A stretch of DNA of 64,000 bases from a virus (IMGVR_UViG_3300032245_001466:18938-82937); one strand, 5' to 3'. Shown: positions 2,933 to 35,872, counted from the stretch's first letter. Notes: generated from the letters alone by a model not told the origin. A program made the numbers and translations.

Positions 2933-2954
2933 CGCGCAAATTAAGGAGGGGAGA

Positions 2955-10637: not shown

Positions 10638-10868
10638 TCGGATTCACCCGCTGTACCGCGGACGCGCGGTGCGGCGGGTGGTTCGTTCGCGCCCACCTGT
10701 GGCCGCGTTCGATCTCACACACACATAATATAAGTAAGTAACTAAGTAATCTGACTAACCTAACAGGTTCGAGACAGCGCTCCGCGCTTATCGAGGCCAC
10801 CTAATGACTGACCGCTATCGTGGCATTCTCTCGGTGCGGCAGTTGCCGTATAGTTTATTGGAGGGTGT

Positions 10869-11183
10869 ATGTTCGAGTATGGTGAACCAGTCGTATCCGC
10901 AACCTACCGCAACGACGCGGTCGCAACGGTCACGATGACCTATCCGTCATTGGAGGGCAAGCTTCCAATGTGGTACACGCTTGATTTGACAATCGGCGAT
11001 CTACCGCGTCTCGTTTGGGGCTACGGCGAATGGAAGGCGGGTAGCGTCAGCGATACGCCGCGCGTCTACTCACTGCTCAAGAATATTGGCGTGTGGACGG
11101 ATGTGCCAGCGTTCATCCGCAGGGATGTTCTCAACGACTACGCGTCATTGGTCGGCGTGACCATTCGCGGCAGCGTCCTGTAG
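10869..11183 (+). CDS. cassette gene L1, hypothetical
   Basis: GGAGG RBS; fills the space between repeats. Confidence 0.75.
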   Translation: MFEYGEPVVSATYRNDAVATVTMTYPSLEGKLPMWYTLDLTIGDLPRLVWGYGEWKAGSVSDTPRVYSLLKNIGVWTDVPAFIRRDVLNDYASLVGVTIRGSVL

Positions 11184-11408
11184 CGCACGCAACCCCCATC
11201 GTCCAGACCATCGGGTCTGGGCGGTGGGTGGTTCGTTGGCCGCCCCCCGATGGGCACAGTTCGATATCGAGACTCCATAATATAAGTAACAGCCTAACTA
11301 AGTTCGAAGCGGCGCTCCGCGCCTAACAACACCACCTAAACGAATCTGCTGCTCGTGGCACTCTCTTGGTGCGGGGCAACAGCACCGCAATAGTATGGAG
11401 GGAATCAA

Positions 11409-11624
11409 ATGGCGTCAACGGCATGGAATCGCAAGAGTGCTGATTGGTATCAGCACAAGGCTACTGAGATCGTTGATATTGCGATGGACCTCACGAATCC
11501 ATCGGCAGACCTGGCGTTGGGTCTAGCCCACAAATGCGCAACGGCGTGGAGCCTCTCACCGCTCAATCGTGAGAAGTTCATGATGCTCGTATACGCAACG
11601 TTCAAGAACGCAATCAAGAAGTAG
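11409..11624 (+). CDS. cassette gene L2, hypothetical
   Basis: GGAGG RBS; between repeats. Confidence 0.75.
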   Translation: MASTAWNRKSADWYQHKATEIVDIAMDLTNPSADLALGLAHKCATAWSLSPLNREKFMMLVYATFKNAIKK

Positions 11625-11869
11625 ATCGACCAATAGGTCGGCAACAGAATCCACTCGCGGGTCGCAGTCGATGCGGCTCGCGGGTGGTTCGTTCGCCACC
11701 ACACACAGGCCAGAGTTCTATCTCGAAGCTATGTAATATAAGTAAGTGGGTAACTAAGTTCGACGCGGCGCTCCGCGCCTAACATGCCCACCTAAACAAC
11801 ACTCTGGCGTGTGGCACTCTCTGGTCAGCGGCGGACGCGCCGCGTAATCGTATAGTAGTAGGAGGTAGT

Positions 11870-12166
11870 ATGGTAGACGCAACCGTCAAGCACTACAACC
11901 CTATCGAGTGGGTTGTCTGGTTCGTAGAGGATAGGTCGCTATCTGATACGGAGAATAGCATCGAGTTCACGGAGCTTCAGGATCGTGTGAATGATCGGAT
12001 CACCGCCGCAATCACGGCGCTCCGTCATTCCAATCCAAACGGCTGGCTCGATAGCCTGGATCAGGGTGGCATGCGCATCATTAACGATGCGCTCGCGCCG
12101 ATCCAATGCCGCACGAATCGTCAGGACGATTCTGGCGCGTGGATCATTGAACGAGTAGACGCGTAA
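11870..12166 (+). CDS. cassette gene L3, hypothetical
   Basis: AGGAGGT RBS; between repeats. Confidence 0.75.
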   Translation: MVDATVKHYNPIEWVVWFVEDRSLSDTENSIEFTELQDRVNDRITAAITALRHSNPNGWLDSLDQGGMRIINDALAPIQCRTNRQDDSGAWIIERVDA

Positions 12167-12402
12167 AACATCCCCCACTCATCGCGGACGCGCGGTGGGT
12201 GGGGGGTTAGTTCGTCGCACCCCGTTCTGTGGCCAAGTTCTAACTCGAGATCCCATAATATAACTAACAGCCTAACTAAGTTCGAGTCAGCGCTCCGCGC
12301 TTAACGAGCACACCTAAATGAATCTGCTGCTCGTGGCATTCTCTTCTTGCGAGCGATGGCACCCGTATAGCAGCGGTGCTCGCAGAAAGGTAGGTGTTCA
12401 CG

Positions 12403-12645
12403 ATGTCTAAGAATGACAATCTTGCCGTCGCGATCAAGCGCCGAGACAATGCTCTCGCGTTGCTTGTAAGCGCGAAGGCGGATGTTGTTGCTGCGACGCG
12501 TCGTATCGCCGAGAGCGGTGGTTCCTATTTGGGGAATCGCCCTTCGTCGCATCCGAGCGTTCAGACAGCACAACGCGTCCTCTGGAACGTTGAAGAGCAG
12601 TACGCCAAAGCGGCGGCTGATCTGGCAACGATCCAGAAGGCGTAG
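12403..12645 (+). CDS. cassette gene L4, helical hypothetical
   Basis: RBS-like AGGTAGGT; between repeats. Confidence 0.7.
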   Translation: MSKNDNLAVAIKRRDNALALLVSAKADVVAATRRIAESGGSYLGNRPSSHPSVQTAQRVLWNVEEQYAKAAADLATIQKA

Positions 12646-12916
12646 CGTCCGTCTGGATTCTCCGAACCGCTCGTCGCTGCTAGGCGAGCGGTTCCCCTTC
12701 TCCCCTCACCGAGCAAGCGCGGTGGGGGGAGAGGTCTATCGGGCCTCTCTCACTACGTTCGATCCCGACAGTCCATAATATAACTAACTAAGTAACTAAG
12801 TTCGAGTCAGCGCTCCGCGCTTAACGAGCCAACCTAAATGAATCTGCCGTCCGTGGGAATATTCATTTGCGACGGGAGAGACGTCGCCCATGTGGTTAAA
12901 GCAAATAGGAGGCTCT

Positions 12917-13189
12917 ATGACGGATACCGAAAAGAAGGCAGCTCCGGTCACGTTGCTGCCATTTGTTGTCGTGGTCGCACGACTCGTTGAATTCTACATC
13001 CCTGTAGCAGCGGCTACAGCGGCTGATGCGAGTGATATCGCTCAGCAGATGGTCATGGATGGCCATGCTGATGATTTCTCCAACGAATGCGACATCCAGG
13101 AGGATGACGTTGACGTTCGGGGGGCGACGTTTGACGATCGCAACCTGTACAAATTCTTTGACGCGGACGGCGAAGAGCACCGCTTCTAG
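12917..13189 (+). CDS. cassette gene L5, acidic hypothetical
   Basis: AGGAGG RBS before ATG 12917. Confidence 0.75.
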   Translation: MTDTEKKAAPVTLLPFVVVVARLVEFYIPVAAATAADASDIAQQMVMDGHADDFSNECDIQEDDVDVRGATFDDRNLYKFFDADGEEHRF

Positions 13190-13455
13190 ATCCTGACCGC
13201 CATCTCTCGGCGGTCAACATCCCCCTCACCGCAGCGATGCGGTGAGGGGGATGGTAGATCCCTAGTCTCTCTCACTACGTTCGAGCTCGAGAATCCGCAA
13301 TATAACTAACTAACTAACTAACCCAGAGTTCGACTCGCCGCTCCGCGGCTAACATGCGTACCTAAATGAATCGGGCGGTCGGGGCATTATGTCGGCACGG
13401 GGACGCCCGACGCGTTGTGAATCGCAACGCGAAACAGAATCAAATAGGAGGCAGT

Positions 13456-13716
13456 ATGGACGCACTGGAAATCTTGTACAAGGTATTCGCACTATCGTAT
13501 GTTGCCGAGCGCGAGGCGTATCGCAATGTTCAGCGTTGGGAGACGCTCGCAGCGGCGCAGGGGAAACCCGAACCGCAGTACGCAACCGATAGCGTGTACG
13601 CTTCGCTCATTGATGAGTGGGACGAAGCGCACAAGGAACTGAAGAAGTTTGAGCGCGAACTTCTCAAGGAGTACCGCAAGCAGCGAGCAGCGGGCACCTT
13701 CACAGTGATGGCGTAG
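13456..13716 (+). CDS. cassette gene L6, hypothetical
   Basis: AGGAGG RBS before ATG 13456. Confidence 0.75.
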   Translation: MDALEILYKVFALSYVAEREAYRNVQRWETLAAAQGKPEPQYATDSVYASLIDEWDEAHKELKKFERELLKEYRKQRAAGTFTVMA

Positions 13717-13951
13717 ACACCGCCACGACACCACACCCCATCAACCGCGGACGCGCGGTTGGTGGGGTGGTCGGTCGGTACTCTCTCTCACGTTGTTCGA
13801 GCTCGGCAGCCCATAAGATAACTAACTAACTAACTAACCAATAACTGGTTCGAATCGGCGCTCCGCGCCTAACGAGCCCACATAAACGAATCCGTCGCCT
13901 ATGACATTATTCAGGTGCGGCAGTTGCCGTGTAGTATGAAAGGGGAAAGAA

Positions 13952-14278
13952 ATGTCACACGAGTTAGAGTTCAGTCACGATCCAAAGAGCGTCGCAGATC
14001 CCTGCTCTCTGGATAGTATCGTTGAGGCGTACATTGAATTCCGCAACGCACCTGTGCGTGGCACGAATCTCGTTTATCGGCAAATGCCCGTAGACGAGAT
14101 GCTCGCGATGACGCGCCGACCAGAGGATTTCATTGAGAGGCTAGGATCGTGGGCTGCGATCTGGGGTTCAGATTCTCAGCGATACGACATCGGCAAGTTC
14201 GGGTGGTGGTCCTGCTCCGAGTGCGGCGCCGATGACATTGAGTTAGGTTCATACGACGACGAGTGCGACGAAGAGTAG
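13952..14278 (+). CDS. cassette gene L7, acidic, C-terminal CxxC
   Basis: AAGGGG RBS; WSCSECG...DDECDEE. Confidence 0.75.
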   Translation: MSHELEFSHDPKSVADPCSLDSIVEAYIEFRNAPVRGTNLVYRQMPVDEMLAMTRRPEDFIERLGSWAAIWGSDSQRYDIGKFGWWSCSECGADDIELGSYDDECDEE

Positions 14279-14499
14279 TCGCCAATCGCTCCACTCTCCC
14301 ACCGCTCACCGCTTCGGCGGTGGGCGGTGGTAGTTCCATCCCGAGTCTCTCACTTCGTTCGATCTCGAAACTCCATAAGATAACTAACTAACTGGGCGTT
14401 CGATCCGACGCTCCGCGTCTATCAGGAGAACCTAAACAATAATGGCGTCTATGTCATTGTCTCTCTGCGGCACCTGCCGTATAGTTTGTAGGAGGTAGT

Positions 14500-14823
14500 A
14501 TGTCGGACACAGAAACGATGAGCCTTCAGGAGATGGCTCGCGAACTGACGGTAATGCGCATTGAGCGTTCCCGCTGCTGCGATCCATACGATTGTATGCA
14601 TCACGAGATGTGCGGCGAAGAGTGGTACGGGAAATGCAGCGGCTGCGAGCGTCGTGCGTACCTTTCCAATGAATTCTACGCTGCGTGCGAAGCAGAGAAT
14701 GCAGATCCTGCCGCGCTGCTCAATGCAGAAGAGCGCGCTATTGAGGATGAGCGCTTTGACTTCTACTCGCGAATGAACGAGTGGGGCAATGACGACGCTG
14801 CCTTCTGGACCGATCAAGAGTAG
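14500..14823 (+). CDS. cassette gene L8, acidic Cys-rich
   Basis: AGGAGGT RBS. Confidence 0.75.
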   Translation: MSDTETMSLQEMARELTVMRIERSRCCDPYDCMHHEMCGEEWYGKCSGCERRAYLSNEFYAACEAENADPAALLNAEERAIEDERFDFYSRMNEWGNDDAAFWTDQE

Positions 14824-15032
14824 TCGCATCACCCCGTTCACCGCTTTGGCGGTGGGCGGGGTGGTCTACCGAGGCTCTCTCACTACGTTCGATACCGAAC
14901 CCCCGTAAGATAACTAACTAACCCTGAGTTCGACTCGGCGCTCCGCGCCTAACGAGAGCACCTAAATGAATCACCCCCTCGTGGCATTCTCTTGGTGCGG
15001 CACTTGCCGCGTAGTATGAAAGGGGAGCGCAA

Positions 15033-15338
15033 ATGTTTGATTGCGTAAAGCACGGCGAGGTAGCGAAGAGTCTCAGTGGCTATTGCGTTGCTTGCTGCTC
15101 AGAGGATCATATCTGCGAAACCTGCGGATTGCGCAGCGGCAGTGATGATGGCTTCACTCTCGTTGAGTGGCGCAGCACGCAAATTTGGAAGGGTCAGATG
15201 CTTTGCGATGATTGCGTTGCGTGCGCAGATTGCGAAGTTTCTGGTGACGGTACCGTGAACACCCACAACGATTACAGCGAACTGCTTTGCGATGCTTGCG
15301 TTGAGGATCGCGACGCAGAGTGGGAGAGCGAAGAGTAG
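15033..15338 (+). CDS. cassette gene L9, multi-CxxC acidic protein
   Basis: Several CxxC pairs; ends WESEE. Confidence 0.75.
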   Translation: MFDCVKHGEVAKSLSGYCVACCSEDHICETCGLRSGSDDGFTLVEWRSTQIWKGQMLCDDCVACADCEVSGDGTVNTHNDYSELLCDACVEDRDAEWESEE

Positions 15339-15571
15339 TCACAACCGATCCACTCCACCATCGTCAACCGCTCGGCGGTTGGCGGTGGTGGTTCAATCGG
15401 GAGTCTCTCACTTCGTTCGATCCCGACAGTCCGTAATATAACTAACTAATTAACTAACTAATAACTGGTTCGACTCGGCCCTCCGGGCCTATCGGCCTAA
15501 CATAAATGAATCAATCGTTTGCCGTACTCTCTGGGTGCGGCGGTTGCCGTGTAGTAATAAGGAGGCTAGTA

Positions 15572-15916
15572 ATGGGAGCAATGAAGAATCAAGCAATAGA
15601 GGAGCGCAACGATAGCGTCGTTGATTATCACACATGGCGATTCGTAGAAGCCGATGGCGGTGCTGATCAGCACGCGCTAGAGTGGTGGGCGTCATCATAC
15701 GCTCGCCGTGCCGATACCGCCGACGAAGCGGTAGACGTCATGGAGAAGCCGCATCACTACGCTGAGGAGATTGCAGAGTTCGCCAGCATTTATGCTGACG
15801 CGAGCGATGACGACCTCTCGCTATTCGGCTATTGGGAGTGTGAAGAGTGCGGCGAAGAGTCCAAGAGGATCTCGCACTCGATAGACATGGCGAAGACCTG
15901 CTACGGTCAGCAGTAG
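15572..15916 (+). CDS. cassette gene L10, acidic
   Basis: AAGGAGG RBS before ATG 15572; WECEECG. Confidence 0.75.
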   Translation: MGAMKNQAIEERNDSVVDYHTWRFVEADGGADQHALEWWASSYARRADTADEAVDVMEKPHHYAEEIAEFASIYADASDDDLSLFGYWECEECGEESKRISHSIDMAKTCYGQQ

Positions 15917-16145
15917 CGCACCGCCCCACTCACCGCTTCGGCGGTGGGTGGGGCGGTCTATCGGGCCTCTCTCACTTCGTTCGAGCTCGCCAACCTGACT
16001 AATAACTAACTGCATAACTAACTAAGATAACTAACCTAACGTTCTGACGCTCGCTCCGCTCGCTTCGGCCGAACTATAATGAACCCAGCGATTCAGGCAC
16101 TATGTCGGTGCGGGGCTTCCCGTGTTGCGATAAGGAGGCAATAAA

Positions 16146-16518: not shown

Positions 16519-16836
16519 TTATGCTTCTGCCTTTGCCTCGGCTTTCGCGTCATCTACATAGGTGCGTGCGATTTCGTGCCAGTTGATTGCCTCAACCGCG
16601 GCGCGCAATAGGTCTGCCTCAAGTCCTGCCGCCTTCGTTGTCCAAGTTTCGTCAATCTCGTTGCGCAAGGTGTCCGCGAGAGTGTCGGCGGCGTCGTCCG
16701 TGTCGCCTTCGTTGTCCGTAAGAATCTCGGCGGCAATCTCCGCAACATAGTCGCTGCCGCCCGCATAGCCTTCGCCAATCCACAACGCGGCAAGCCAAGT
16801 TTCGTAGTTGCTCCAGCCGTTGTATTGTCCGCTCAT
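16519..16836 (-). CDS. cassette gene R1, acidic YNGW-motif protein
   Basis: YNGWSNYETW...INW.EIA; GGAGG RBS; TTGACA(16903-16908)-18-TATAAT(16879-16884) promoter. Confidence 0.8.
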   Translation of the reverse strand: MSGQYNGWSNYETWLAALWIGEGYAGGSDYVAEIAAEILTDNEGDTDDAADTLADTLRNEIDETWTTKAAGLEADLLRAAVEAINWHEIARTYVDDAKAEAKAEA

Positions 16837-17017
16837 TGTCTAGCCTCCTTCTATGCCTTGCCCAAGTGGGCTAGTCGCATTATAGAGTGAGATTCTGCGC
16901 CCTGTCAAGCGTTCTATCTCAGGTAGCCGGGGCTACCTGAGCCATAACAATAAACCCCGCCGAAGCGGGGCTTATCGTTTCACGACGGGGGGCTAGTTCC
17001 CCGTAGCGAGCATCTAG

Positions 17018-17239
17018 TTATCGCGCAAGCGCGACGGCCTCTTGTACGCGGCTTGCCGCGCCCTCGGCGCTACCGAACTCCTCAATGCCGAACACCTCAA
17101 CGAGATTGTTTACAAAGTCGGTCGCCATCTTCTCAAAGTAGAAGGTCGTATCGCCCTCCGCGTCCTGCCCCTCATACCAACGGGCAAAGGTTGTGCTTGC
17201 TCCGTTTGTGTGAATCTGATACCAAGTGTTTGCGTTCAT
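17018..17239 (-). CDS. cassette gene R2b, hypothetical
   Basis: ORF coupled to upstream small Cys-rich ORF. Confidence 0.65.
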   Translation of the reverse strand: MNANTWYQIHTNGASTTFARWYEGQDAEGDTTFYFEKMATDFVNNLVEVFGIEEFGSAEGAASRVQEAVALAR

Positions 17240-17244
17240 TAGTC

Positions 17245-17394
17245 CTACTCCTCACATACGCAGGTTTCGCACCCGCAGTTGATTTTGTTGTGGCACTTCT
17301 CGCAAAGCACCTTGCCGCTCTGGTTGAGTGTTTCGCTCATACCATCGCCGCAGTTCTCGCAGGGCGAGTAGTCCAAGTCCTCAAAGGTCGCCAT
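17245..17394 (-). CDS. cassette gene R2a, 49-aa Cys-rich acidic protein
   Basis: MATFEDLDYSPCENCG...LCEKCH...CGCETCVCEE*; AGGAGG RBS; translated by hand. Confidence 0.65.
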   Translation of the reverse strand: MATFEDLDYSPCENCGDGMSETLNQSGKVLCEKCHNKINCGCETCVCEE

Positions 17395-17555
17395 TTCTAG
17401 CCTCCTATTCCTAGCCAGCCCAAGTGGGCTACGGGCATTATAGAGTCATCTTCTGCCTGCCGTCAAGTGGTTCTAGTCCAATCTGCCGAGGCAGATTGGA
17501 GGCAAACAAAAACGAGGGGCGCACCCCTCGTTTCTGTTTTCTGAGCTGCGAAACC

Positions 17556-17963
17556 TTACGCGATAGGGTAGCCGCCCAGTTCTAGCAGCGTGCGGATTTC
17601 TTCCACCTGCTCATCATTGAGGGCGAGCGTCTGCCCGTCCTTATCCTCTGCGGTGAGTACGCAGTTGCCATAGATGCCGTCAAAGTTTCCGCCGAGGATT
17701 TCATTTCGCAGCGAAGTTGCCGCCTGATTGCGGACGACTGGCTCATTGAAAAGCCCTTCCTCATCGCACCAGAGCACCACACTCGTTGCGCCGTACTTGC
17801 CAGAAACCGCAACCTCGGTAATGTCAAACTCGCCCACGCGGTAAATCTCTTTGAGCGTGCTGCCGTCATCGTTGAAGTCCACCACCTCAACCCAGTTGAA
17901 GAGTGCGCCGTTTGGCGTTGCGTCCTCAAACTTGCCGACTCCGAACTTGAACGCCTTACCCAT
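17556..17963 (-). CDS. DUF3846-like protein
   Basis: LWCDEEGLF....RN..AT...IYGNCVL...DG.T..L. Confidence 0.65.
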   Translation of the reverse strand: MGKAFKFGVGKFEDATPNGALFNWVEVVDFNDDGSTLKEIYRVGEFDITEVAVSGKYGATSVVLWCDEEGLFNEPVVRNQAATSLRNEILGGNFDGIYGNCVLTAEDKDGQTLALNDEQVEEIRTLLELGGYPIA

Positions 17964-18093
17964 TTTCTAGCCTCCTACTTTTTCCATCGGGAAGCCCCGA
18001 CCTCTGAATCTTACGCGATAAATCCGCAGCCTGTCAAGCGGGTTCTACCCCTAATGGCCGGAGCCATTAGGGGCTGAACTATTATCTGGCGAT

Positions 18094-18435
18094 TTAGGCG
18101 AAGACGCTTGTGATGTCCTGCATTTCGCGCTCAGCGGCTTCGGCGGAATCAAAGACAACGAAGTCAATGAATCCATCGTTGCGCCAGTGAACGATTGCAT
18201 ACTGGAACCTATCGTAAGTCCCATCAAGTTCGGTTTCATACGATTCATCTGGGATAGCAACGCCATCCATCGTATCTCCATAGATGAGTTCAATCTTGAT
18301 AGCGTGCGGCTCAACGCGGCTCCGAACTTCTGGTCGGAGATACCAAACTGGGCACTTGCTGCACACTTCGCCCTGTGAGCAGTGGAACTGGTAGAAGTCG
18401 CTCTTCGTGAGTGAGATTGCAAACGCCTTGAACAT
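18094..18435 (-). CDS. cassette gene R4, hypothetical
   Basis: AGGAGG RBS and own promoter. Confidence 0.7.
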   Translation of the reverse strand: MFKAFAISLTKSDFYQFHCSQGEVCSKCPVWYLRPEVRSRVEPHAIKIELIYGDTMDGVAIPDESYETELDGTYDRFQYAIVHWRNDGFIDFVVFDSAEAAEREMQDITSVFA

Positions 18436-18636
18436 CCTAGCCTCCTGTTCTCAATCAGCCCAAGTGGGCTACGCCCATTGTAATGTGAACTTTCCCAGCC
18501 TGTCAAGCGTTCTATCCCAAGTGGCCTCGGCCACTTGGGGCATAACAATAATAAAGCGGGCTAGTTGGCTGCGATCAACTAGCCCGCTTGGGGAAGAGGT
18601 GGTGGAGGCTGCCGCCACCTCGTAGACATTAGTCCG

Positions 18637-18900
18637 CTATGCGAACTCAAACTGGCGACAATCTGCGCCGAACAAACAACTGGCTGGCTCGTGTGGTTGT
18701 GGCTCTATTGCCCAGTTTAGGCAAGTGCCGCAAGAATCGCCACAAAGGTTGATGTCATCCCAGTCAAAGACAGGTCCGAGGGTGTTGCCCTCGCGGTCAG
18801 TTGTCTGTGGGTCGTCAAGCGCGTCGCCGAAGCGAACCTCAGCGCACGCCACGCAATGGAATGAACCCTCGTAAGTCCAAGCCAAGATTCTGCTATCCAT
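18637..18900 (-). CDS. cassette gene R5, Cys-rich (HC..CA..RF...DREGN)
   Basis: GGAGG RBS before ATG 18900. Confidence 0.7.
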   Translation of the reverse strand: MDSRILAWTYEGSFHCVACAEVRFGDALDDPQTTDREGNTLGPVFDWDDINLCGDSCGTCLNWAIEPQPHEPASCLFGADCRQFEFA

Positions 18901-19094
18901 AAGTCCTCCTACTCGCAACTATCGGTAGTTCCCGACCACACGATTATACGCGATAAGTTCTGAGCCTGTCAAGTTCCACCGCAAGGAGCCGAGGCTCCTT
19001 GCGCCTACCCAATAATGCTATCTACTGCTGATGAGGGCGAGTGTGTACAGCATTAGGAGCAGGAGCAGCCCGTAGAAGATGGCGTACTCCACAA

Positions 19095-19352
19095 TCATAC
19101 AACCACGCTTTGGAGCGCGTCGTAGCAGTCATCGCATAGCGACTGCTTATGCTCGTAGGCGTTCTCGTAGCCGTTCCAGCCGTAGGCAAACGAACGCGTC
19201 TTGCCCTCAAACGGGCAACGCTTGTCCAGACCAAGAGCCTCCTCGCCCTCGCACTCCTGAACCATTGGGTGATCGTGCGTTTCGCACTCGCATTGGTCGT
19301 AGTAGCAATCGCCGTTGCCACACATCGTCATTGACGCTTGTAGGTATGCCAT
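19095..19352 (-). CDS. cassette gene R6, Cys-rich acidic
   Basis: AAGGAGG RBS before ATG 19352. Confidence 0.7.
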   Translation of the reverse strand: MAYLQASMTMCGNGDCYYDQCECETHDHPMVQECEGEEALGLDKRCPFEGKTRSFAYGWNGYENAYEHKQSLCDDCYDALQSVVV

Positions 19353-19469
19353 TGTTGCCTCCTTCACTAGCCTCCCCAAGTGGGGTACTCGTATTCTATA
19401 CACACTCCTAGCCAGCCGTCAAGCGGGGTTCTAGTCATCTTTGCCGGAGCAAAGATGAGCAGAACAAAT

Positions 19470-19695
19470 AGAAAGACCCCCCAGAGCCGTCGCCCTGAGA
19501 GGTCTTTCCTCGGATTCGTTGTCTGGGGCTAATCACTTCCCCAGACTCCTTTTCCTTCCGCTCCGCCGATACATTGGCTCCTAGCGGTCATCGTCCTTTG
19601 CGTCTCTATCCCCGCATTTCTTGGCTGCGGCATCTGCTCGCTCGTCCAGAGTCTCACCCAGTCGGTTGCTATTCCTAGGATCGCTTCCGACATAG
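19470..19695 (-). ncRNA. candidate small RNA occupying a cassette slot
   Basis: TTGACA(19722-19727)-18-GATACT promoter and terminator hairpin near 19472-19508, with no RBS-led ORF between. Confidence 0.45.
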
Positions 19696-19855
19696 GGAGT
19701 ATCTCACCTCGTCTGGGGTCTTGTCAAGCACTTTCCCAAAGATTCTTTATGAATCTTTTTTATCCACCAGCCGCCCCCTTGACAGTTCTATCCCGAAGTG
19801 CAGCTGCACTTCGGGCTGCCACAATAATAAACTCAAAGAACAAGGAGCCAAATAA

Positions 19856-19990
19856 CTAACTCTCTTGCGGGTGCTCGCAGTTTTCTGACTGCTCCAACTC
19901 GTAGCACGCGTTATCCCGAACGGGATTGTCTACACACTCGCAGACAATCTCATTGCGTTCGCAGTCATCGCACCAAACCATCGTACTCAT
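19856..19990 (-). CDS. 44-aa Cys-rich acidic protein
   Basis: MSTMVWCDDCERNEIVCEC...; GGAGG RBS; translated by hand. Confidence 0.55.
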   Translation of the reverse strand: MSTMVWCDDCERNEIVCECVDNPVRDNACYELEQSENCEHPQES

Positions 19991-20208
19991 TAGAGCCTCC
20001 CAGTTCCGCCGCAGCCGCAGATGCCGCCCTCGCAGGTTGCGCCTTCCTCAACGAGCAGCGCGCAGCCGTACTTCTCGGCTCGGTGTTCCTCGCACGATTC
20101 GCAGTAAAGAGCAGATTTGCCAGACTCATTGTTGTCGGAGATGTACGCTGCCTGACCGTCGCAGAAGTCGCAGAAGCGCGACTCCAAGATGAACTCGCCC
20201 TCGCTCAT
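19990..20208 (-). CDS. Cys-rich small protein
   Basis: CDFCD...YCESCE...CEGGICGC. Confidence 0.65.
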   Translation of the reverse strand: MSEGEFILESRFCDFCDGQAAYISDNNESGKSALYCESCEEHRAEKYGCALLVEEGATCEGGICGCGGTGRL

Positions 20209-20414
20209 AGTGCCACCTCAAATCCGTCAGCCTGAATACCATCTAGAATCTGCTGAACATAGCGGCGCTCAATCGCAAGACCGCGACCAAGATACATCGC
20301 GTCCTCGCCGATGTTCTCGTCCAGCCAGCGGCGAGCATCGCTCGTCGTCGGAGTGAGTAGGCAGACGGAGCCGCCGTCCGTGAGCGTGAAGTCCGCGCTG
20401 TGCTTCTTTGCCAT
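20205..20414 (-). CDS. conserved small phage protein
   Basis: GSVCLLTP....A..WLDENI...LAIERRY...I..G...DG; AGGAGG RBS. Confidence 0.7.
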   Translation of the reverse strand: MAKKHSADFTLTDGGSVCLLTPTTSDARRWLDENIGEDAMYLGRGLAIERRYVQQILDGIQADGFEVAL

Positions 20415-20734
20415 TGTGTCCTCCTATCGCAACGCGCCCAAGTGAGCGTGAGGAAAGTGTAAATGATCATTGACCAGCCGTCAAGTTCTAACTCAAACAG
20501 CCGCGGCTGTTTGAGCCGAAACAATAAAGGGGAGCCGCGCCAGACACCACATCTGGCACGACTCCCCGCGTATCGCCGCTATGACGCTTATCCCCTTGCG
20601 GAGGCAACCTTCGGCTCTCGCCTAGTTGCTGCTGACTCTACCTTCTCTGGTTAGGAGCCCAAGAGCCAGACCTTATCGTCGCGGGCAGTTCGTCAATCTG
20701 CCAACTAGCCGTCCTCTACACGGCGCGGATTTAT

Positions 20735-21019
20735 TTACGCTTTCACCTCGTACTGCTCGCCGCCGATTCGCAGCGCGGTGATTGCGTCAAGGGCGATTGA
20801 GCGATAGCCCTCTGCGGTAATGTCATAGACGAAGATGAGGTCTTTGGCAGCAGCGTCATACGCAGCCTCGCCGCCTTTGAGATGCTTCTTTACGCCAAGA
20901 CGCGCCGTCATCTTGCGAAGTTCGCCCGTGGTTCGCTTGATGAAGTCCACGCCGAAGATTGCGCCATTGCTGTTGCGAATCATCTCTGCCGCTTCGCTTC
21001 GCTTGATTGCCTTTGCCAT
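20735..21019 (-). CDS. SH3/WYL-like beta-barrel protein (DUF2693-like)
   Basis: F.V.F.KRTTGELRKM.ARLGV...VYDI...GYRSI. Confidence 0.6.
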   Translation of the reverse strand: MAKAIKRSEAAEMIRNSNGAIFGVDFIKRTTGELRKMTARLGVKKHLKGGEAAYDAAAKDLIFVYDITAEGYRSIALDAITALRIGGEQYEVKA

Positions 21020-21141
21020 TTCTTCCTCCTTGTTCACAGCACCCCAATCGGGGCAAGCCCATTATAGGGTCATCTTTTGCCAGCCGTCAAGTGGGTTCTA
21101 GCCCAAGAGGCCGGAGCCTCTTGGGGCTGAACTATAATCGC

Positions 21142-21318
21142 CTACTTCCAGTCTTCTGGAACTAACTGCCAATCCTTTTCGCAATCACTAGAATAAAGGT
21201 CGCAATGCCGACACCAGACGACAAAGCAGCCCTCCTCGTGTCCGTCTTTCTCGCAATCAGACCAGAGCCAATGCGCCTCGCGAAGATTGTCTGGGCAGTC
21301 GCAGCGAAGAACGCTCAT
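21142..21318 (-). CDS. small Cys-rich protein
   Basis: Coupled to upstream gene. Confidence 0.5.
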   Translation of the reverse strand: MSVLRCDCPDNLREAHWLWSDCEKDGHEEGCFVVWCRHCDLYSSDCEKDWQLVPEDWK

Positions 21319-21764
21319 AGGACTTCGCAACCTTTCAGGGTGCGGCAAAGACCCAGAAACTCTCGCCACTCCTCAATAATCGCAACCCAAGCCGTAGCCT
21401 CTTCATCTGGGTCAGCCTTCGTCTTATCGTCCGTGTACGGGCTGGCAAGAAGAATACCAGTAATAATCTTCTTGATTTCTTCTTCGCTCAACTTGGAGAT
21501 GGCATTGTGTAGTTCTTCGCACTCATAGTCCTTGATGATGTTGCCGCTGTTATCGTACAGATTCTCATTGACCTCGGTGAATCCAATCTCATCGTGGAAA
21601 GCGCGCAGGTAGCCCATACCCCAAATGTTCAGTCGGAAATAGACCGCGCTTGGAGCCTTCTCAGCGTAAGAGCCGTCTGGCTCAATCCACATTGAGCGGA
21701 ACTTCTTGGCGTGCGCCGCAGCCAGTTCACGATTCTCTCGCAATGAGTAGATGTCGTATCCCAT
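21315..21764 (-). CDS. conserved phage protein (YFRLNIWGM...FL..C..CEV)
   Basis: AAGGAGG RBS before ATG 21764. Confidence 0.7.
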   Translation of the reverse strand: MGYDIYSLRENRELAAAHAKKFRSMWIEPDGSYAEKAPSAVYFRLNIWGMGYLRAFHDEIGFTEVNENLYDNSGNIIKDYECEELHNAISKLSEEEIKKIITGILLASPYTDDKTKADPDEEATAWVAIIEEWREFLGLCRTLKGCEVL

Positions 21765-21917
21765 TTTGTCCTCCTTATTCCACACCCCAATCAGGGCAAG
21801 GTCATTGTAAGGTACCGCTCTCCGCTCGTCAATAGGTTCTAGCCAAGATGGCCGGAGCCATCTTGGGTACAACAAAAAACCGCCCGAAGGCGGTTAGTTG
21901 TTTGGAAATAATCCTGA

Positions 21918-22394
21918 CTAAACGATAACTTCCTGCGGCTCCATAAGCCCAGCCCAGATGTTTGGCACATTAGAGCGGATGCTCGTGTATCCGTCAGAGG
22001 AAATAACGAGATGGTCAAGAAACTCAATGTCCAACAGGCGCGCCCCTGCCACCAAGTCCTCAGTTAGTTTCTTGTCCTCGTCGGACGGAGTGTGGTCGCC
22101 GCTTGGGTGATTGTGAACAACCACAATGCCCTGACCGCCAGTCAGGATACAAGAGCGAAACACTTCGTTGATGCGAACGCTTGTGCCTGTTGCCGTGCCA
22201 AGATAGACCTGCTCAATCCCGATGAGATTATTCCTTGCCCCAAGCACCATCACAAACAGCGACTCCTGATTAGAGTCCTTTGCGAAATCGCGGAACATCT
22301 TTACTGCCTCGGCTGGCTGCTCAACCCTCTCATCGGACTGATCAGCAACCTTCTTTCTCTTTACCACCATTTCGTATGCTTTCCAGTTCTTCAC
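21918..22394 (-). CDS. RadC-like JAB domain protein
   Basis: QE...V..L..RN, VHNHPSGD..PS.ED..LT, LLDIEFLDHLVI. Confidence 0.9.
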   Translation of the reverse strand: MKNWKAYEMVVKRKKVADQSDERVEQPAEAVKMFRDFAKDSNQESLFVMVLGARNNLIGIEQVYLGTATGTSVRINEVFRSCILTGGQGIVVVHNHPSGDHTPSDEDKKLTEDLVAGARLLDIEFLDHLVISSDGYTSIRSNVPNIWAGLMEPQEVIV

Positions 22395-22939
22395 GCTACC
22401 ACCACCTTTGCTGCTTCCTCTTTGGTTGTCTTGCCGCTGCGAATCTCATCTCGCAACTCAATCCCTTCCTTCATCCAGATTGCGTCAAGTTCGGCGTTGC
22501 GCTTCTCAGCGTGCTTTGCCTCGCGCAAACCTTCCTCAGTCATACGCTCAACAACGCGCTTGCGCCAAGCCGTCGGCGACTCATAAGAGGCGTTTGTTGA
22601 GAGTCCGATGTGCCGAACGATGTCGGCACGCGTCAGAGGGCGAGCCTCAAAGCAATCTGCGTTCTTATCGCCGTCTGGCTCGTTTCCGTTCCATACGGTC
22701 ATCTTTGAGAGCCAACCGATTTCGTATGCGAGCGCGAGTCGCTGCTCCCACTCATCCACATTGGCTTCGGTGATTTCGTTTAGTCCAATCGTCATCGTCG
22801 CCCAGATGAAGGAGTTCGTGATTGGGCTGAGGTACTCCTCGCCGCGCACGCGTCCATCCATCACGCTGCTCTTTGTTGCGGTGAGCCAACAGACATCATC
22901 CGCGTCCTTGATGTTTCCCACGAACCAACTTAGTGGCAT
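22391..22939 (-). CDS. hypothetical protein
   Basis: AAGGAGG RBS; IGL.EITE.N...HIGLSTNA. Confidence 0.7.
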   Translation of the reverse strand: MPLSWFVGNIKDADDVCWLTATKSSVMDGRVRGEEYLSPITNSFIWATMTIGLNEITEANVDEWEQRLALAYEIGWLSKMTVWNGNEPDGDKNADCFEARPLTRADIVRHIGLSTNASYESPTAWRKRVVERMTEEGLREAKHAEKRNAELDAIWMKEGIELRDEIRSGKTTKEEAAKVVVA

Positions 22940-23067
22940 ACTGCCTCCTTATGTCCTCTTATCGGGAAGCCCCGACCTGCTTATTCTAAGACCACGCTTG
23001 ACCCGCTGTCAAATGGGTTCTAGTCCAATGAGCCGGAGCTCATTGGAGGCGAACTATTATCTGCTTA

Positions 23068-23538
23068 TTACTTGATTTGGTTTGTCGTATAACCGCACGC
23101 CATACAAACTGGGACGGAGCAGCCTTCGGGATTGTCGCCCGTATCTACGCCCTCATCTGGGTCGCACAATCCACACGGCGCATAATCGACATCACGGCAG
23201 AGGCACTCGCTTTTCGCATCTCGCGGCAAGTCGTTGTAGTGCCTGTGCCAGTTTGCGTCGCCGTCGCGATTCAGCGCAAACTCGCAATCAGGGCGGAAGC
23301 ACCAACCATCAGCAACGGCTTCCTTGTCCGACATAAATGGCGGGTGAAACTCACACTCGCACGGAGCGCAGTCCAAGCAGTAGACGAGATAGCCATCTGG
23401 CACGCTTCCATCATACTGATCAAAGTCAAGCGTATCGAATCGCGTGTACGGCATACCATTCCAAGTGCCGATGACCTTCTCGTCGGCGTAGAAGACCATC
23501 GTGGAGCAGCGAACGCATTTGTCCATCTGCCCACTCAT
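23068..23538 (-). CDS. Cys-rich hypothetical protein
   Basis: Multiple CxxC; coupled. Confidence 0.6.
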   Translation of the reverse strand: MSGQMDKCVRCSTMVFYADEKVIGTWNGMPYTRFDTLDFDQYDGSVPDGYLVYCLDCAPCECEFHPPFMSDKEAVADGWCFRPDCEFALNRDGDANWHRHYNDLPRDAKSECLCRDVDYAPCGLCDPDEGVDTGDNPEGCSVPVCMACGYTTNQIK

Positions 23539-23843
23539 TCTGCTTCCTCCCACTCCGCGCCCTGCTCAATCAGGGAAACGAATCCTTCATTTGGATCATC
23601 GTGGTTGGTGTGAACTGCCTGTACGAATCGCAACGAACAAGAGTTCTCGTACCACTCCATCACCGCGCTCAGCATCTCATCTGGCGTGGTGTCTTCCGCG
23701 GAGATCAGCGGATCATAGCCGTACCCGCGCATCTCCGACATCTGCTCATCGTCCATCAAGACATAGATCTTGTGGCAGGTATCAAACGCGATGCCCTTCG
23801 CATTTTCTAGATACTCCTCAACCTTGTCGAAACTCGCTGCCAT
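23535..23843 (-). CDS. conserved acidic phage protein (IAFDTCHKIY...WYENSCSLRF)
   Basis: AGGAGG RBS and own promoter. Confidence 0.7.
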   Translation of the reverse strand: MAASFDKVEEYLENAKGIAFDTCHKIYVLMDDEQMSEMRGYGYDPLISAEDTTPDEMLSAVMEWYENSCSLRFVQAVHTNHDDPNEGFVSLIEQGAEWEEAE

Positions 23844-24003
23844 TTCGTCCTCCTAGTTTCTACACGGCAACTGCCGTAGGTGGATTGTAAGGCACAACCT
23901 AGCGGCTCGTCAAATGTTCTACTCCAAGTGGCCGGAGCCACTTGGAGTAAAACAAAAATCCCGCCCCGAAGGGCGGGATTTCTGGTTGATCTTCTGGTGA
24001 AGA

Positions 24004-24966
24004 TTACGCGAGGGCGAGAATCGCCTCGCGCTTTGTCTTCGCTGCGAAGCCCGTATCCAACATCACGCTTGACGCTCGCGCATCAAGAGCCGTTGAGCGA
24101 ACGCCGCCACGATACGAAACGCCGTGATCGAGGTACTCCGCGATGGCGTTGTACACGCCCCACTTCGTATCGCGAAGCCCGTCAAGATTCTCCGCGTTAT
24201 TGAGAATCGCGAAAGTTGCCTTAGCGCGCTCCGACATTACTTCCTTATCGCGCTTCTCCGATTCAGAGAGCGGGAAGATCTTTGAGATGATGCGGAACGC
24301 CTCAGATCGCTCAATCTTCTGGGCAACCATCTGCGAGCCGATGCGCGAGAACTCATCAACAGCGGCAGAGGCAAGCCCAAGAGCGCGCTTCGCCTCCGCG
24401 ACTTTCTCCTCAATCTTCGCCGTGTGGCGAAGTGTGAACGACATCTTCGCGCTTCCAAGAGCCGCGTTGAGCGTATTCTGGCATACCACGCGCACAGGAG
24501 TGATCATCGCTTTGAGCGGGAACAGCCCGTTGTGCCCATTGGCGATGACGAGGTAAGTCGTCGTGCCGCCGTTGTCGCCCTTGATCTCGATCTTCTCAGG
24601 AATCTCCAACGCCGCGAAGATCACCTGACCGCCTTTGAGTGAACCAGCCGTTTCGTAGCGCGCACCCTCATCAAGCAGCGCGTCCGCGAACGACAGCATC
24701 TCATCGTTCTGGATTGGCGTGTAGCGGTCGCCGACAACGCCAAGAACCGCGCCGTCAGTTGATCGAACATTTGCGCGCTTGCCCTCGATGGCGAGCGTCT
24801 TGTTGTCGAGCGTTGTGAAGATCGGCTGCTGCTTGACCTGCCAATCAAGACCCGCGGCAACGATCATTTCCGCGCTCGTAGTAAGACCTGCGTTTGCTAC
24901 GCCAAGTCCGTGCCACGGCATACCGCGCTCCGCGTTGTATGCCATCGTTTCTACCTCGTGTGCCAT
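24004..24966 (-). CDS. DUF932 family phage/plasmid protein
   Basis: MAHEVETM...PWHGLG...AGLDW.V...LGVVG.RY..IQN...YETAGSL.GG...TPVRVVCQNTL...RHT. Confidence 0.9.
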   Translation of the reverse strand: MAHEVETMAYNAERGMPWHGLGVANAGLTTSAEMIVAAGLDWQVKQQPIFTTLDNKTLAIEGKRANVRSTDGAVLGVVGDRYTPIQNDEMLSFADALLDEGARYETAGSLKGGQVIFAALEIPEKIEIKGDNGGTTTYLVIANGHNGLFPLKAMITPVRVVCQNTLNAALGSAKMSFTLRHTAKIEEKVAEAKRALGLASAAVDEFSRIGSQMVAQKIERSEAFRIISKIFPLSESEKRDKEVMSERAKATFAILNNAENLDGLRDTKWGVYNAIAEYLDHGVSYRGGVRSTALDARASSVMLDTGFAAKTKREAILALA

Positions 24967-25151
24967 TGTGTCCTCCTTCTTTACATACGGCAACTGCCGT
25001 AAGAAGATTCTCCCACAAGCACAAGATCGCGTCAAGTTCTAGCCCAAAGGGCCGGAGCCCTTTGGGTGGAACATAATAATAAGCCCCCCGAATAATCGAG
25101 GGGCTTATTACTTTGTGGGGCGCAGGGAGGACGCCTTGCGCCCCGAAGTCA

Positions 25152-25964
25152 TCAGCCTCCGACGATGCCGCCGAAATGCTCCTCGCAGAACGACTCAAAC
25201 TCCGTCTGCGGAACGGCATCATAATCTCGCTCGCCGTATTGCGGCTTGCCATCTTCGCCCTTGTACCACGCCTCATCTGGCAGCGAGTCGCCATCGCCAA
25301 ACTCACGCCGCGAGATTTCGTTTCCCGCGTGATAGACAACTTCGCCAGCGTAGCCCATACCGCCTTCGCAATAACGATGAGTAATGGTCAGCGTTGGGAA
25401 TAACCCAGAGAGCGCGTGAATCACAGGCTCGGCAGGGCTCCACGCGGTATCAAAGTTGTATGAAGTTATACCCGCGACAAATGAGTCGTCGCGGTCGTGC
25501 CAAGCCTCGGAGCAGTTCCACTTTGTTCCCCAATGCTCAACATTCCAGTTGTACCACCAGTCTGGGTGTGAGGAAATCTTTGGGGTGTTGTGCTTTGGGC
25601 AGACCTCTGAGCCGCCGAACATCTGAGCAACAGAGTCAGTAATCGTGCCGTTATCAAGGTTCGTCTTCTTTACCTCAACGCCGTCCACAGCCCAATAGCC
25701 TTCTTGAGGCTCAAAGCCGTAGTCCTTCTCGTACTCGTGTCCTTCGGCTCCCTTGACCACCGCCTTGGTGATAACGAACTCTGGGTGGCAGCCACAAAGG
25801 AAATCGTTCTGATTCTCGTTGGCTGAATAGTACGGAACATCAGGAGTCGGAACAATCTTCGCGAAATCGAAGCCGTCCTCTTCGCCCTTGACCAACTCAA
25901 TGAGTCGGACAATCTCCTGCTCGTTTCCGCTGATGTCTACTTGGTTTACGCACCAGTTTGGCAT
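25152..25964 (-). CDS. DUF1281/YubB-like ferredoxin-fold protein
   Basis: MPNWC.N...FDF..IVP.P...WYNWNVEHWGTKWN...FDTAWSP...Y.E.G. Confidence 0.85.
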   Translation of the reverse strand: MPNWCVNQVDISGNEQEIVRLIELVKGEEDGFDFAKIVPTPDVPYYSANENQNDFLCGCHPEFVITKAVVKGAEGHEYEKDYGFEPQEGYWAVDGVEVKKTNLDNGTITDSVAQMFGGSEVCPKHNTPKISSHPDWWYNWNVEHWGTKWNCSEAWHDRDDSFVAGITSYNFDTAWSPAEPVIHALSGLFPTLTITHRYCEGGMGYAGEVVYHAGNEISRREFGDGDSLPDEAWYKGEDGKPQYGERDYDAVPQTEFESFCEEHFGGIVGG

Positions 25965-26085
25965 TGTGTCCTCCTTGTGTCCTCGCGGGAAGCCCCGCAC
26001 CATTGGATTGTAAGCCACCGCTTCCGCTGCTGTCAAGTTCTACCTCAACAAGCCGGAGCTTGTTGAGCGCGAACTAATTATTTTT

Positions 26086-26418
26086 TTATTTATCGAAAGA
26101 GAGTGCACTAACTCCGTCAGGCGTCATGACCACATGTCCACCTTCGACGAAGATGCGTCCGCCATCGTTAGCCTCATCATCAGATGAAATAATCAGGGAA
26201 TAACGCTTGCCGTTCTGCTTGACGAATAACACGGGCATGTATGGCTCTTCCTCGCCATCGCCAATAACTGTCCCACCAATAATCGTCGCCCCAATAAATG
26301 GCTCGACCATCTCTGTCCGAAGGTAGTGGCGCTCAATGGCATCGCGGCTCAAGCCAGTCCGCTCTTTCACTAACTGATTCCTATTGCTCAATAACTGCGC
26401 AATCGTTTCGACAGCCAT
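26086..26418 (-). CDS. first gene of right arm, hypothetical
   Basis: AAGGAGG RBS; TTGACA/TATAAT promoter at ~26458-26488. Confidence 0.7.
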   Translation of the reverse strand: MAVETIAQLLSNRNQLVKERTGLSRDAIERHYLRTEMVEPFIGATIIGGTVIGDGEEEPYMPVLFVKQNGKRYSLIISSDDEANDGGRIFVEGGHVVMTPDGVSALSFDK

Positions 26419-26623
26419 AACTTCCTCCTTACACCTATAGGCTAACTGCCTAACCGCATTATAAGTCAGCCAATAACCGTCTGTCAAATAATAAGGTTCG
26501 GGCCTCGCTTGCGAGCTCGGGACTGCCCCAAATAATAAGTCTTGTCAACTCCCCCCACCCCCACCCCAAACTTGACTCCCCGCTATCCCCTGCCTTACAA
26601 TGCCCCCATAGGAAAGGAGTCGC

Positions 26624-28835: not shown

Positions 28836-28911
28836 TGGTGGGGGCGCCTGGATTTGAACCAGGGGCCGTCCGGATATAAGCCGGATGCTCTAACCGCTGA
28901 GCTACGCCCCC
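28836..28911 (-). tRNA. tRNA-Ile(UAU)
   Basis: GGGGGCG/CGCCCCC acceptor + ACCA; D arm GCTC..GAGC; anticodon arm TCCGG-CTTATAT-CCGGA; T loop GTTCAAATC; 76 nt. Confidence 0.9.
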
Positions 28912-29582: not shown

Positions 29583-29798
29583 TCACTCACCCAAGAAGTC
29601 ACGGATGAGCCATGCACGTGCTGGGTGCTTGAGCTTCTTCAGTGCTCGCTGTTCAATCTGTCGCACGCGTTCACGAGAGATACGGAACTCTGCTGCGATC
29701 TCCTCCAATGTCCATGGACGACCTGTGCCAATGGTGAGATTCCCTGCGTCGTAGGTGCCTTGTTCGTCTTTTGTCACTGCTACCTTTTTGCGTCCCAT
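29583..29798 (-). CDS. stand-alone sigma70 region 4 protein
   Basis: TLEEIAAEFRISRERVRQIEQRALKKLKHP...RDFL closely matches the RpoD/SigA C-terminus; AGGAG RBS. Confidence 0.85.
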   Translation of the reverse strand: MGRKKVAVTKDEQGTYDAGNLTIGTGRPWTLEEIAAEFRISRERVRQIEQRALKKLKHPARAWLIRDFLGE

Positions 29799-35796: not shown

Positions 35797-35872
35797 TGGC
35801 GCCGCCGACAGGAATCGAACCTGCGACTAACTGCTTAGAAGGCAGCTGCTCTATCCACTGAGCTACGGCGGC
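35797..35872 (-). tRNA. tRNA-Arg(UCU)
   Basis: GCCGCCG acceptor, anticodon loop CTTCTAA, GTTCGATTC T loop, GCCA end; 76 nt. Confidence 0.92.

Follow-up and report, generated by a model that had tools for sequence, protein, structure and literature searches.

A 38-bp palindromic element, present in 14 copies, marks the joints between early-gene cassettes in the genome of an uncultured freshwater phage. The DNA that we analysed, called the window below, is a stretch of 64,000 nucleotides comprising bases 18938-82937 of an 82,937-bp IMG/VR virus record (IMGVR_UViG_3300032245_001466), which is rated complete and has a 123-bp terminal repeat; window DNA and relatives of it occur in freshwater metagenomes. 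The element is conserved as a structure with terminal motifs and not as a sequence, as an earlier account made without database searches (the sequence-only reading) had supposed, and this is evident in its covariation, its exclusively Watson-Crick pairs and its fixed frame. We are confident that the joint as a whole is a composite of the kind known from T4-type phages as promoter-early stem-loops (PeSLs), and we think it probable that the element has a DNA-level role of some kind. The full explanation, which we offer as a serious possibility and not yet as a probable account, is that the element is the stem-loop module of a PeSL-like joint separating self-contained early-gene cassettes, kept as a DNA palindrome and acting as both a boundary and a site of exchange.

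Pattern matches, direct reading and a covariance model agree with the sequence-only reading on 14 copies at 16911-26074, 13 of 38 bp and one of 37 bp (25036-25072), in which a base is absent from the 5' internal loop. The pattern GTTCTA-N29-AAC has 12 exact matches, all on the plus strand and all between 16911 and 26074; with up to one mismatch there are 20, compared with 9.74 ± 3.21 in shuffled sequences, none of 100 of which reached 20. One mismatch separates the copy at 19785 from this pattern, and those at 18973 and 25036, which have degenerate ends, were recovered by sequence reading and with the covariance model. The claim that stems of about 10 bp differ between copies and yet always pair was borne out: all 14 upper stems are different, 140 of 140 cells are paired in a register alignment, and changes on both sides are seen at eight of the ten pairs. 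The covariation score was 0.610, against 0.160 ± 0.027 in shuffles (0/500 reaching 0.610) and no more than 0.132 when the partner was slid. As DNA, every copy folds into a hairpin of -9.6 to -16.0 kcal/mol (z -3.9 to -8.5), which none of 200 shuffles equalled. The closing pairs are GC/GC in 14/14 and the plus-strand loop is CGGA in 8/14, again as first described.

To follow the element beyond the window we used the covariance model, built from the 14 window copies; copies score 42-56 bits, with a threshold near 15-20. Scanning phage genomes with it, a step envisaged in the sequence-only reading, gave 77 copies, all on the sense strand. The window accounts for 14 of them, and four related IMG/VR contigs (L013-L016), retrieved via a DUF932 gene, have 15-16 each. 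The model matched nothing else in the window, and nothing in the remainder of its genome (L018) or in L017, a distant AT-rich phage. Sixty-six of the 77 are distinct, with 46 different arms. Pattern scans added 24 copies in four more contigs, giving 101 in nine related IMG/VR contigs, and 100 of these measure 38 bp, with a symmetric 3x3 internal loop. Besides the 10-bp upper stem there is a lower stem of 3-4 bp, which GTT and AAC are able to form across the 3x3 loop and which a C/G pair extends in 47 of the 66 distinct copies. In each of the five whole records the copies are limited to one array of about 10 kb, all on one strand.

All upper-stem pairs are Watson-Crick, both in the 77 copies (770/770; 660/660 in the distinct ones) and in the 24 further copies (240/240), so that 1010 pairs in 101 copies include no G.U. 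This lack of G.U is not an artefact of the search, because the covariance model tolerates several non-canonical pairs. With Watson-Crick pairs only, both DNA strands can therefore fold equally.

Genes within 16.5-26.5 kb of the window sit on the minus strand, and each element therefore lies upstream of a -35 box in the direction of transcription. Read in the sense direction, a joint runs from the stop codon of the upstream gene through an optional terminator with a T-run, six A/T-rich bases, GTT(C), three variable nucleotides, a 10-bp arm ending in GC, a 4-nt loop, the complementary arm, N-T-A and GAAC. After 0-5 bp there follow TTGAC(A/G), an 18-bp spacer, TAnAAT, a small hairpin in the 5' untranslated region (5'-UTR), AGGAGG and ATG. 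Across the 77 copies the A/T content of the six bases preceding the element is 82-100%, and this tract is placed 5' of the palindrome and not beside the -35 box. A canonical terminator with a T-run stands upstream of the element in 8 of 14 window joints and 44 of 77 overall (57%); in 33/77 no separate terminator was found.

The statement that most copies lie 0-5 bp from a -35 hexamer, on its upstream side, proved accurate for 13 of the 14 window copies, the exception being the one at 19785. TTGAC follows within 14 bp in 72 of the 77 copies, and in these 72 joints the distance from TAGAAC to TTGAC is 0-5 bp in 66, 12-14 bp in six and 6-11 bp in none. Helical phasing to the -35 box was considered and rejected, the second mode being based on only two orthologous joints. 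Fifteen strong minus-strand promoters were found in this arm of the window (the right arm); the first has no element, and among the 77 copies three array-terminal ones have no promoter.

This architecture recalls the promoter-early and promoter-middle stem-loops (PeSLs and PmSLs) of Arbiol et al. 2010 (PMC2839356) and Comeau et al. 2014 (PMC4122927). In extracts of the two papers, the PeSLs of T4-type phages combine an A/T tract and a stem-loop with a sigma70-like promoter and a Shine-Dalgarno sequence; they border accessory genes in hyperplastic regions, and cassettes are deleted, inserted and circularised as PeSLs recombine with one another. As far as those extracts go, the likeness covers the composite intergenic motif (A/T tract, stem-loop, near-consensus sigma70 promoter, Shine-Dalgarno sequence and start codon), its many copies flanking small accessory early genes, and gene content and order that vary between related phages at the motif. 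The PeSL stem-loops, in the same extracts, are G-run/C-run hairpins at variable positions that were shown to terminate transcription, whereas the present element has a constant length and frame, is a perfect palindrome free of G.U, holds a near-fixed place upstream of the -35 box and is often additional to a canonical terminator, with its A/T tract 5' of the palindrome and not beside the -35 box. The element appears to work like a PeSL without belonging to the same lineage, since this phage is not a T4-like myovirus: its capsid protein is SU10-like and its large terminase (TerL) is at most 27% identical to its best matches in our phage collection. The element is, in short, an unusually regular version of the known T4-type promoter/stem-loop joints, in an unrelated freshwater phage. 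Neither PeSLs, its nearest known counterpart, nor the reordering of cassettes between relatives featured in the sequence-only reading. Literature searches, which left supplementary files aside, found no description of such an element.

We used the 29 distinct terminator hairpins directly upstream of elements as an internal control. Their 321 pairs comprise 287 Watson-Crick, 33 G.U and one mismatch, compared with 0 non-Watson-Crick pairs in 660 for the element (Fisher p = 2.8e-17). As RNA, the sense strand of these terminators is stabler than the complement in 25/29 (mean -3.63 kcal/mol), and their loops are UUCG in seven and GAAA in four (11/29); UUCG hairpins are cited as extra-stable RNA structures of phage intergenic regions in an extract of PMC8948821, which refers to Tuerk et al. 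1988. For the element, the sense-antisense difference averages -0.83 kcal/mol, the sense strand being stabler in 39/66 and the antisense strand in 21/66. In all 77 copies no more than three of the 8 nt after the stem are T, and a terminator scan flagged none of the 14 window copies as terminator-like. The element resembles an intrinsic terminator in being a G+C-rich hairpin at gene ends but differs in its constant geometry and in lacking both T-run and G.U. Because a terminator often stands upstream already and a T-run follows the element in 0/77, it is not an ordinary terminator; a bidirectional one was likewise rejected, with no T-run on either side and true terminators adjoining.

Comparison of orthologous joints shows how the element changes. 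Between the window and L013 (ten pairs), stems differ at 5% of positions, compared with 22% for the promoter spacer, 3% for TTGACN and 0% for GAAC; five of 100 stem pairs have changed, all on both sides and none one-sided. Between L015 and L016 (11 pairs) the stems are identical (0/220) and the spacer differs at 3% (6/198), while 7 of 44 loop positions differ (16%), always at the first or last base. Because stems are conserved or mirrored while loops vary most, these alignments indicate that pairing is under purifying selection and that the centre of the palindrome is a mutational hot spot. Instability of palindrome centres and loop flips in plastid hairpins are known DNA hairpin events, and a hot spot of this sort would fit such events without proving them. 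Loops that are exact reverse complements occur in 2 of 11 L015/L016 pairs and 1 of 10 window/L013 pairs; we rejected them as proof of inversion, a two-step route through CGCG being also possible. The sequence-only reading had proposed that diversified stems limit deletion between copies. This is possible, but stems that change more slowly than the spacer (5% vs 22%) speak of purifying and not diversifying selection.

Cassettes, lettered by the first gene after each element, differ in order among the five phages, and BLAST blocks are permuted likewise. The order is ABCDEFGHIJKLMN in the window, AUCEGBHIJKOVLNWX in L014, ADCBEPJGHKOYLNZR in L015 and AaCBEIJGHKOLNQR in L016. L013 is colinear with the window save for one extra cassette bounded by two elements (its letters S, P and T are probably noise of open reading frame (ORF) calling); at that site the window has a single element, whose outer stem is as in one of the two L013 elements and whose inner stem is as in the other. 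Stems differ at 1.5 positions per 10 where both flanking genes are common, 3.15 where only the upstream gene is, 3.95 where only the downstream gene is and 4.23 where neither is; the linkage of a stem to either neighbouring gene is weak. Segment identities weakly suggest that breakpoints fall near the TAGAAC/-35 stretch. Among contigs of four DNA runs, weak hints of other cassette orders come from two single contigs of 88% likeness: one, from the run X3, joins 18535, inside one element, to 16903, in the -35 flank of another, and the second joins 26429 to 23860.

From these observations we infer a molecular role as boundary or insulator and as recombination joint. The active form would be DNA folded on both strands into a hairpin or cruciform. 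Transcription leaves the DNA behind promoters negatively supercoiled, according to the twin-domain model, and extrusion or binding could occur when strong neighbouring promoters generate such supercoiling. Once folded, the element would form a boundary that insulates neighbouring promoters from one another. Cassette exchange by recombination would also take place here, at the element and the conserved TAGAAC/TTGAC stretch beside it, probably through the exonuclease and single-stranded-DNA-binding protein (SSB) functions of the phage, whose genome encodes a lambda-Exo-type exonuclease and an SSB. A separate and, in our view, very unlikely reading is a cruciform-gated promoter: the 38 bp, if extruded from negatively supercoiled DNA, would bring the A/T tract beside the -35 box as an UP element.

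Several observations weigh against this explanation. No protein that reads the element was identified. A G+C-rich centre disfavours spontaneous cruciform extrusion. Breakpoints map only weakly: stems have an identity of 0.66 in joints with just the upstream gene in common and of 0.57 in those with just the downstream gene in common, against a background of 0.59. The sense-strand loop is TCCG in 15 of the 29 copies of the window and L013 and never its complement, and in the window the sense RNA is somewhat stabler (-1.94 kcal/mol); these two biases hint at a strand-specific, possibly RNA-level, reading. In the 33/77 joints with no separate terminator, the hairpin may for that reason act as a PeSL-like attenuator. 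The full 4-bp lower stem is present in 27 of these 33 joints vs 27 of the 44 with a terminator, a difference that is not significant (p = 0.078).

These points lead to the best of the alternatives, an RNA-level function, which we regard as unlikely although it deserves to be taken seriously. The hairpin would form in readthrough transcripts and either attenuate them or protect their 3' ends from exonucleases, as for the PeSL stem-loop and for repetitive extragenic palindromic (REP) sequences. A PeSL stem-loop cut lacZ expression as much as a strong terminator, according to an extract of PMC2839356. The terminator-less joints, the array-terminal copies with no promoter, the TCCG bias and stems that track the upstream gene slightly more closely than the downstream one all favour such a function. 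It is opposed by the complete lack of G.U in 1010 pairs, compared with 10% in the adjoining true terminators, and by the lack of a T-run after any of the 77 stems. In 44/77 joints little transcript should reach the element, because a T-run terminator lies upstream. The loops of L014-L016 (CGCG, GGCG or CGCC) moreover show no sense-strand preference.

If the element is read as DNA, it might also be read as a plain duplex, and this we consider quite unlikely. A phage or host protein would bind the frame of GTTC, GC-loop-GC and TAGAAC near the -35 box and switch the early promoters, for example in shut-off. Such an operator would account for the spacing (0-5 bp in 66/72, with the remaining six one helical turn further away) and for the lineage-specific loop (TCCG in the window and L013, but CGCG, GGCG or CGCC in L014-L016), and the phage has candidate regulators in a stand-alone sigma70 region-4 protein and in helix-turn-helix (HTH) proteins. 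Duplex binding leaves the mirrored changes of the two arms unexplained, however, the six copies at 12-14 bp amount to two orthologous joints only, and three copies have no promoter to switch.

Recognition by a recombinase, an HUH nuclease or a cruciform binder was part of the sequence-only reading. Its DNA-level side is favoured by our results, through the Watson-Crick-only pairs and the position in the gap between terminator and -35 box, whereas no phage Y1 HUH enzyme or serine recombinase was found to support the rest. In its strongest form this would make the folded palindrome the substrate of a shape-reading recombination machine, cut and rejoined like an attC site by a dedicated phage or host enzyme acting on the GTTC/TAGAAC frame, and the array an integron-like anti-defence store with no recognisable integrase; we judge this very unlikely. 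Integron attC sites are longer and variable in length, have extrahelical bases and promoterless cassettes, and are recognised by their shape and by conserved ends that include GTT and AAC triplets. The element shares with them a structure kept while sequence varies, a fixed frame whose short ends contain GTT and AAC triplets, two stems separated by an unpaired spacer, and a place on the 3' side of the cassette. Shuffled cassette order among relatives also speaks for such a site, as does the tendency of the element to go with the upstream gene; an element stands after the last gene in three relatives, and no element stands before the first promoter. Yet six-frame searches of the complete genome gave 0 candidates for a tyrosine recombinase (PF00589; the control was positive in 14/14 genomes) and no serine recombinase or Y1 HUH enzyme, and we rejected attC, HUH and serine recombinase sites on the grounds that the corresponding enzyme was not found. 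The length here is a constant 38 bp, the order of the triplets is reversed, extrahelical bases are absent and every cassette has its own promoter, so identity with attC, which had been raised at the outset, is not upheld. Breakpoints cannot be placed precisely, and the shuffling is explained equally well by homologous exchange across the conserved joint, the mechanism put forward for PeSLs.

Two further suggestions, an N4-type hairpin promoter for an injected phage RNA polymerase and a mimic of clustered regularly interspaced short palindromic repeats (CRISPR), share the hairpin shape (and, for the former, a giant virion-type ORF of >3600 aa) but are extremely improbable: N4-type promoters have a 5-7 bp stem and a 3-nt loop and serve a virion RNA polymerase, whereas here a 10-bp stem with a 4-nt loop is followed by a canonical sigma70 promoter, and the giant ORF matches tape-measure and lysin families only, searches of Pfam, PHROGs and PDB sequences having matched it to no RNA polymerase. 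CRISPR repeats are identical copies separated by spacers, with GTT...AAC-ended hairpins of similar length. The sequence-only reading had likened the element to such repeats and to solitary repeat units; we rejected this identity, as the 14 stems all differ, window copies stand 450-1200 bp apart with genes and not spacers between them, and Rfam CRISPR-DR families gave no match at gathering score or at E <= 5.

REP sequences and bacterial interspersed mosaic elements (BIMEs) have near-identical copies per genome, depend on a REP-associated tyrosine transposase (RAYT), and have proposed roles in gyrase binding as DNA and in 3' stabilisation as RNA. The present element resembles them as an intergenic imperfect palindrome of about 35-40 bp with a conserved tetranucleotide at its base, between co-directional genes, but here every stem differs and no Y1 transposase was matched in the phage (PF01797). 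One pattern scan of 185,579 species genomes, a narrow test restricted to CGCG-loop copies adjoining TTGAC, yielded seven single matches, none accepted by the model. This result speaks against a host REP-like origin only as far as so narrow a pattern reaches.

Features of the right-arm joints and cassette array, in window coordinates.
Feature	Coordinates	Strand	Details
Element, 38 bp	26037..26074	-	50.7 bits, 10/10 Watson-Crick; promoter 26036-26007 (-); no upstream terminator
Element, 37 bp, 2-nt 5' internal loop	25036..25072	-	promoter 25035-25007 (-); terminator ~25083-25104; DUF932 gene next
Element, 38 bp	23916..23953	-	promoter 23913-23884 (-); terminator 23984-23953
Element, 38 bp	23017..23054	-	promoter 23012-22983 (-); no terminator
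Element, 38 bp	21836..21873	-	promoter 21832-21804 (-); terminator 21895-21878
Element, 38 bp	21095..21132	-	promoter 21090-21061 (-); no terminator
Element, 38 bp, CGCG loop	20485..20522	-	promoter 20484-20456 (-); terminator 20567-20529
Element, 38 bp, degenerate 5' end GTGG, AGCT loop	19785..19822	-	no adjacent TTGAC; next promoter 19727-19698 (-)
Element, 38 bp	19428..19465	-	promoter 19422-19393 (-); terminator 19509-19470 with G.U pairs
Element, 38 bp, degenerate ends GGGT...TGGAAC	18973..19010	-	promoter 18972-18943 (-)
Element, 38 bp	18509..18546	-	promoter 18506-18477 (-); terminator 18589-18554
Element, 38 bp	18042..18079	-	promoter 18037-18008 (-); no terminator
Element, 38 bp	17470..17507	-	promoter 17466-17437 (-); terminator 17533-17510
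Element, 38 bp, last of array	16911..16948	-	promoter 16908-16879 (-); terminator 16970-16955
First promoter of the arm, no 38-bp element (no covariance-model match)	26458..26487	-	upstream: irregular inverted repeat ending GAAC and 8 A/T-rich bases
Cassette array	16519..26418	-	small early genes, each (or overlapping pair) with own promoter, 5'-UTR hairpin and AGGAGG
Array cargo: DUF932	24004-24966	-	
Array cargo: DUF1281_C protein	25152-25964	-	
Array cargo: RadC-like JAB protein	21918-22394	-	

Two other features of the array were seen. The 5'-UTR hairpins just after each -10 box (16840-26480, minus strand) fall into four sequence classes and start a few bases past the expected transcription start, positioned as would be expected of 5' mRNA stabilisers. 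At 19470-19730 (minus strand), the promoter at 19727-19698 and the terminator at 19509-19470 enclose no Shine-Dalgarno-led gene, and this unit possibly encodes a small RNA.

More distant relatives have other joints. In 39 loci (602,946 bases) encoding relatives of the first-cassette protein at 28-72% identity, the covariance model found no match. Four of them (L040, L041, L057 and L064) keep the layout of promoter, UTR hairpin and Shine-Dalgarno sequence, with irregular G-run hairpins upstream of or around the -35 box, as in classical PeSLs. Where TAGAAC would stand, immediately before TTGAC, L040, L057 and L064 have a G-run and then C; L040 also has at least one inverted repeat with the -35 box inside it. 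In L039 tandem heptamer repeats and their complement (5900-6010 and 6945-6990) bound the same first cassette gene, replacing the palindrome, and the promoter is of the left-arm type described below. Since these relatives have other joints, the 38-bp form is limited to a subclade and is thus a regularised variant, specific to that subclade, of a joint of more general type.

Joints of a different and more elaborate make occupy the left arm of the window (10700-16100, plus strand). They consist of a terminator, a GTTCGA-N-CTCGA...CCATAATATA box, tandem TAAC repeats and a 26-bp hairpin with a TCC loop, followed by a promoter that does not look like a sigma70 promoter (CCTAAA ... TGGCATTCT) and then by the 5'-UTR hairpins that are also seen in the right arm. 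In the sense direction the 26-bp hairpin reads GTTCGA-NN-C, a 5-bp stem, TCC, the stem again and TA(A/T)C, with ten copies in the window, two in L013 and six in L014. On homology between the two arms the signals diverge: the GTTC-K-A hexamer favours the same absolute strand, and the TCC(G) loop with its flanking context favours the sense orientation.

By megablast the phage has no close cultured relative. Genes identified in its genome include large terminase, portal, an SU10-type capsid protein, tail-fibre-like proteins and the giant ORF. The last runs from 56116 to 63999 of the window (plus strand) and on through L018 21-3077; because it crosses the 123-bp terminal repeat, that repeat is probably the assembly overlap of a circularly permuted or circular map. 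Residues 1719-1830 of the giant ORF are tape-measure-like and another stretch is lysin-like, with no other family matches; a 1590-aa ORF with no family match comes next. L018 also encodes, at 13804-15972 (minus strand), a 722-aa protein with a prohead protease domain (Peptidase_S78) and a ferritin-like domain. A recombination and replication module at 1494-5176 of the window (plus strand) contains a 189-aa protein of no assigned function, a PD-(D/E)XK exonuclease, a replication initiator-like protein, an IstB/DnaC-like ATPase and SSB; none of the phage ORFs scanned was seen to encode a DNA polymerase. On the minus strand, 28836-28911 and 35797-35872 encode tRNA-Ile (TAT anticodon) and tRNA-Arg (TCT anticodon), respectively, and 29583-29798 encodes the 71-aa stand-alone protein with a sigma70 region 4 match (Pfam PF04545, E = 1.6e-13), a candidate binder of the TTGAC boxes or of the RNA polymerase flap.

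The cargo of the array, with its DUF932, RadC-like JAB and DUF1281-type proteins and many tiny orphan proteins, resembles the leading regions of plasmids and the anti-defence islands of phages, and because of cargo of that kind the joints are a ready marker for fast-shuffling early genes in uncultured phages. Within a single joint, RNA-type terminators with G.U pairs and UUCG loops stand beside a strictly Watson-Crick palindrome, a natural contrast that makes an in vivo folded-DNA role of short palindromes directly testable. If the element is indeed an insulator or a recombination site, it would provide a compact part for tandem expression cassettes and would account for the exchange of accessory genes between lytic phages in the absence of integrases.

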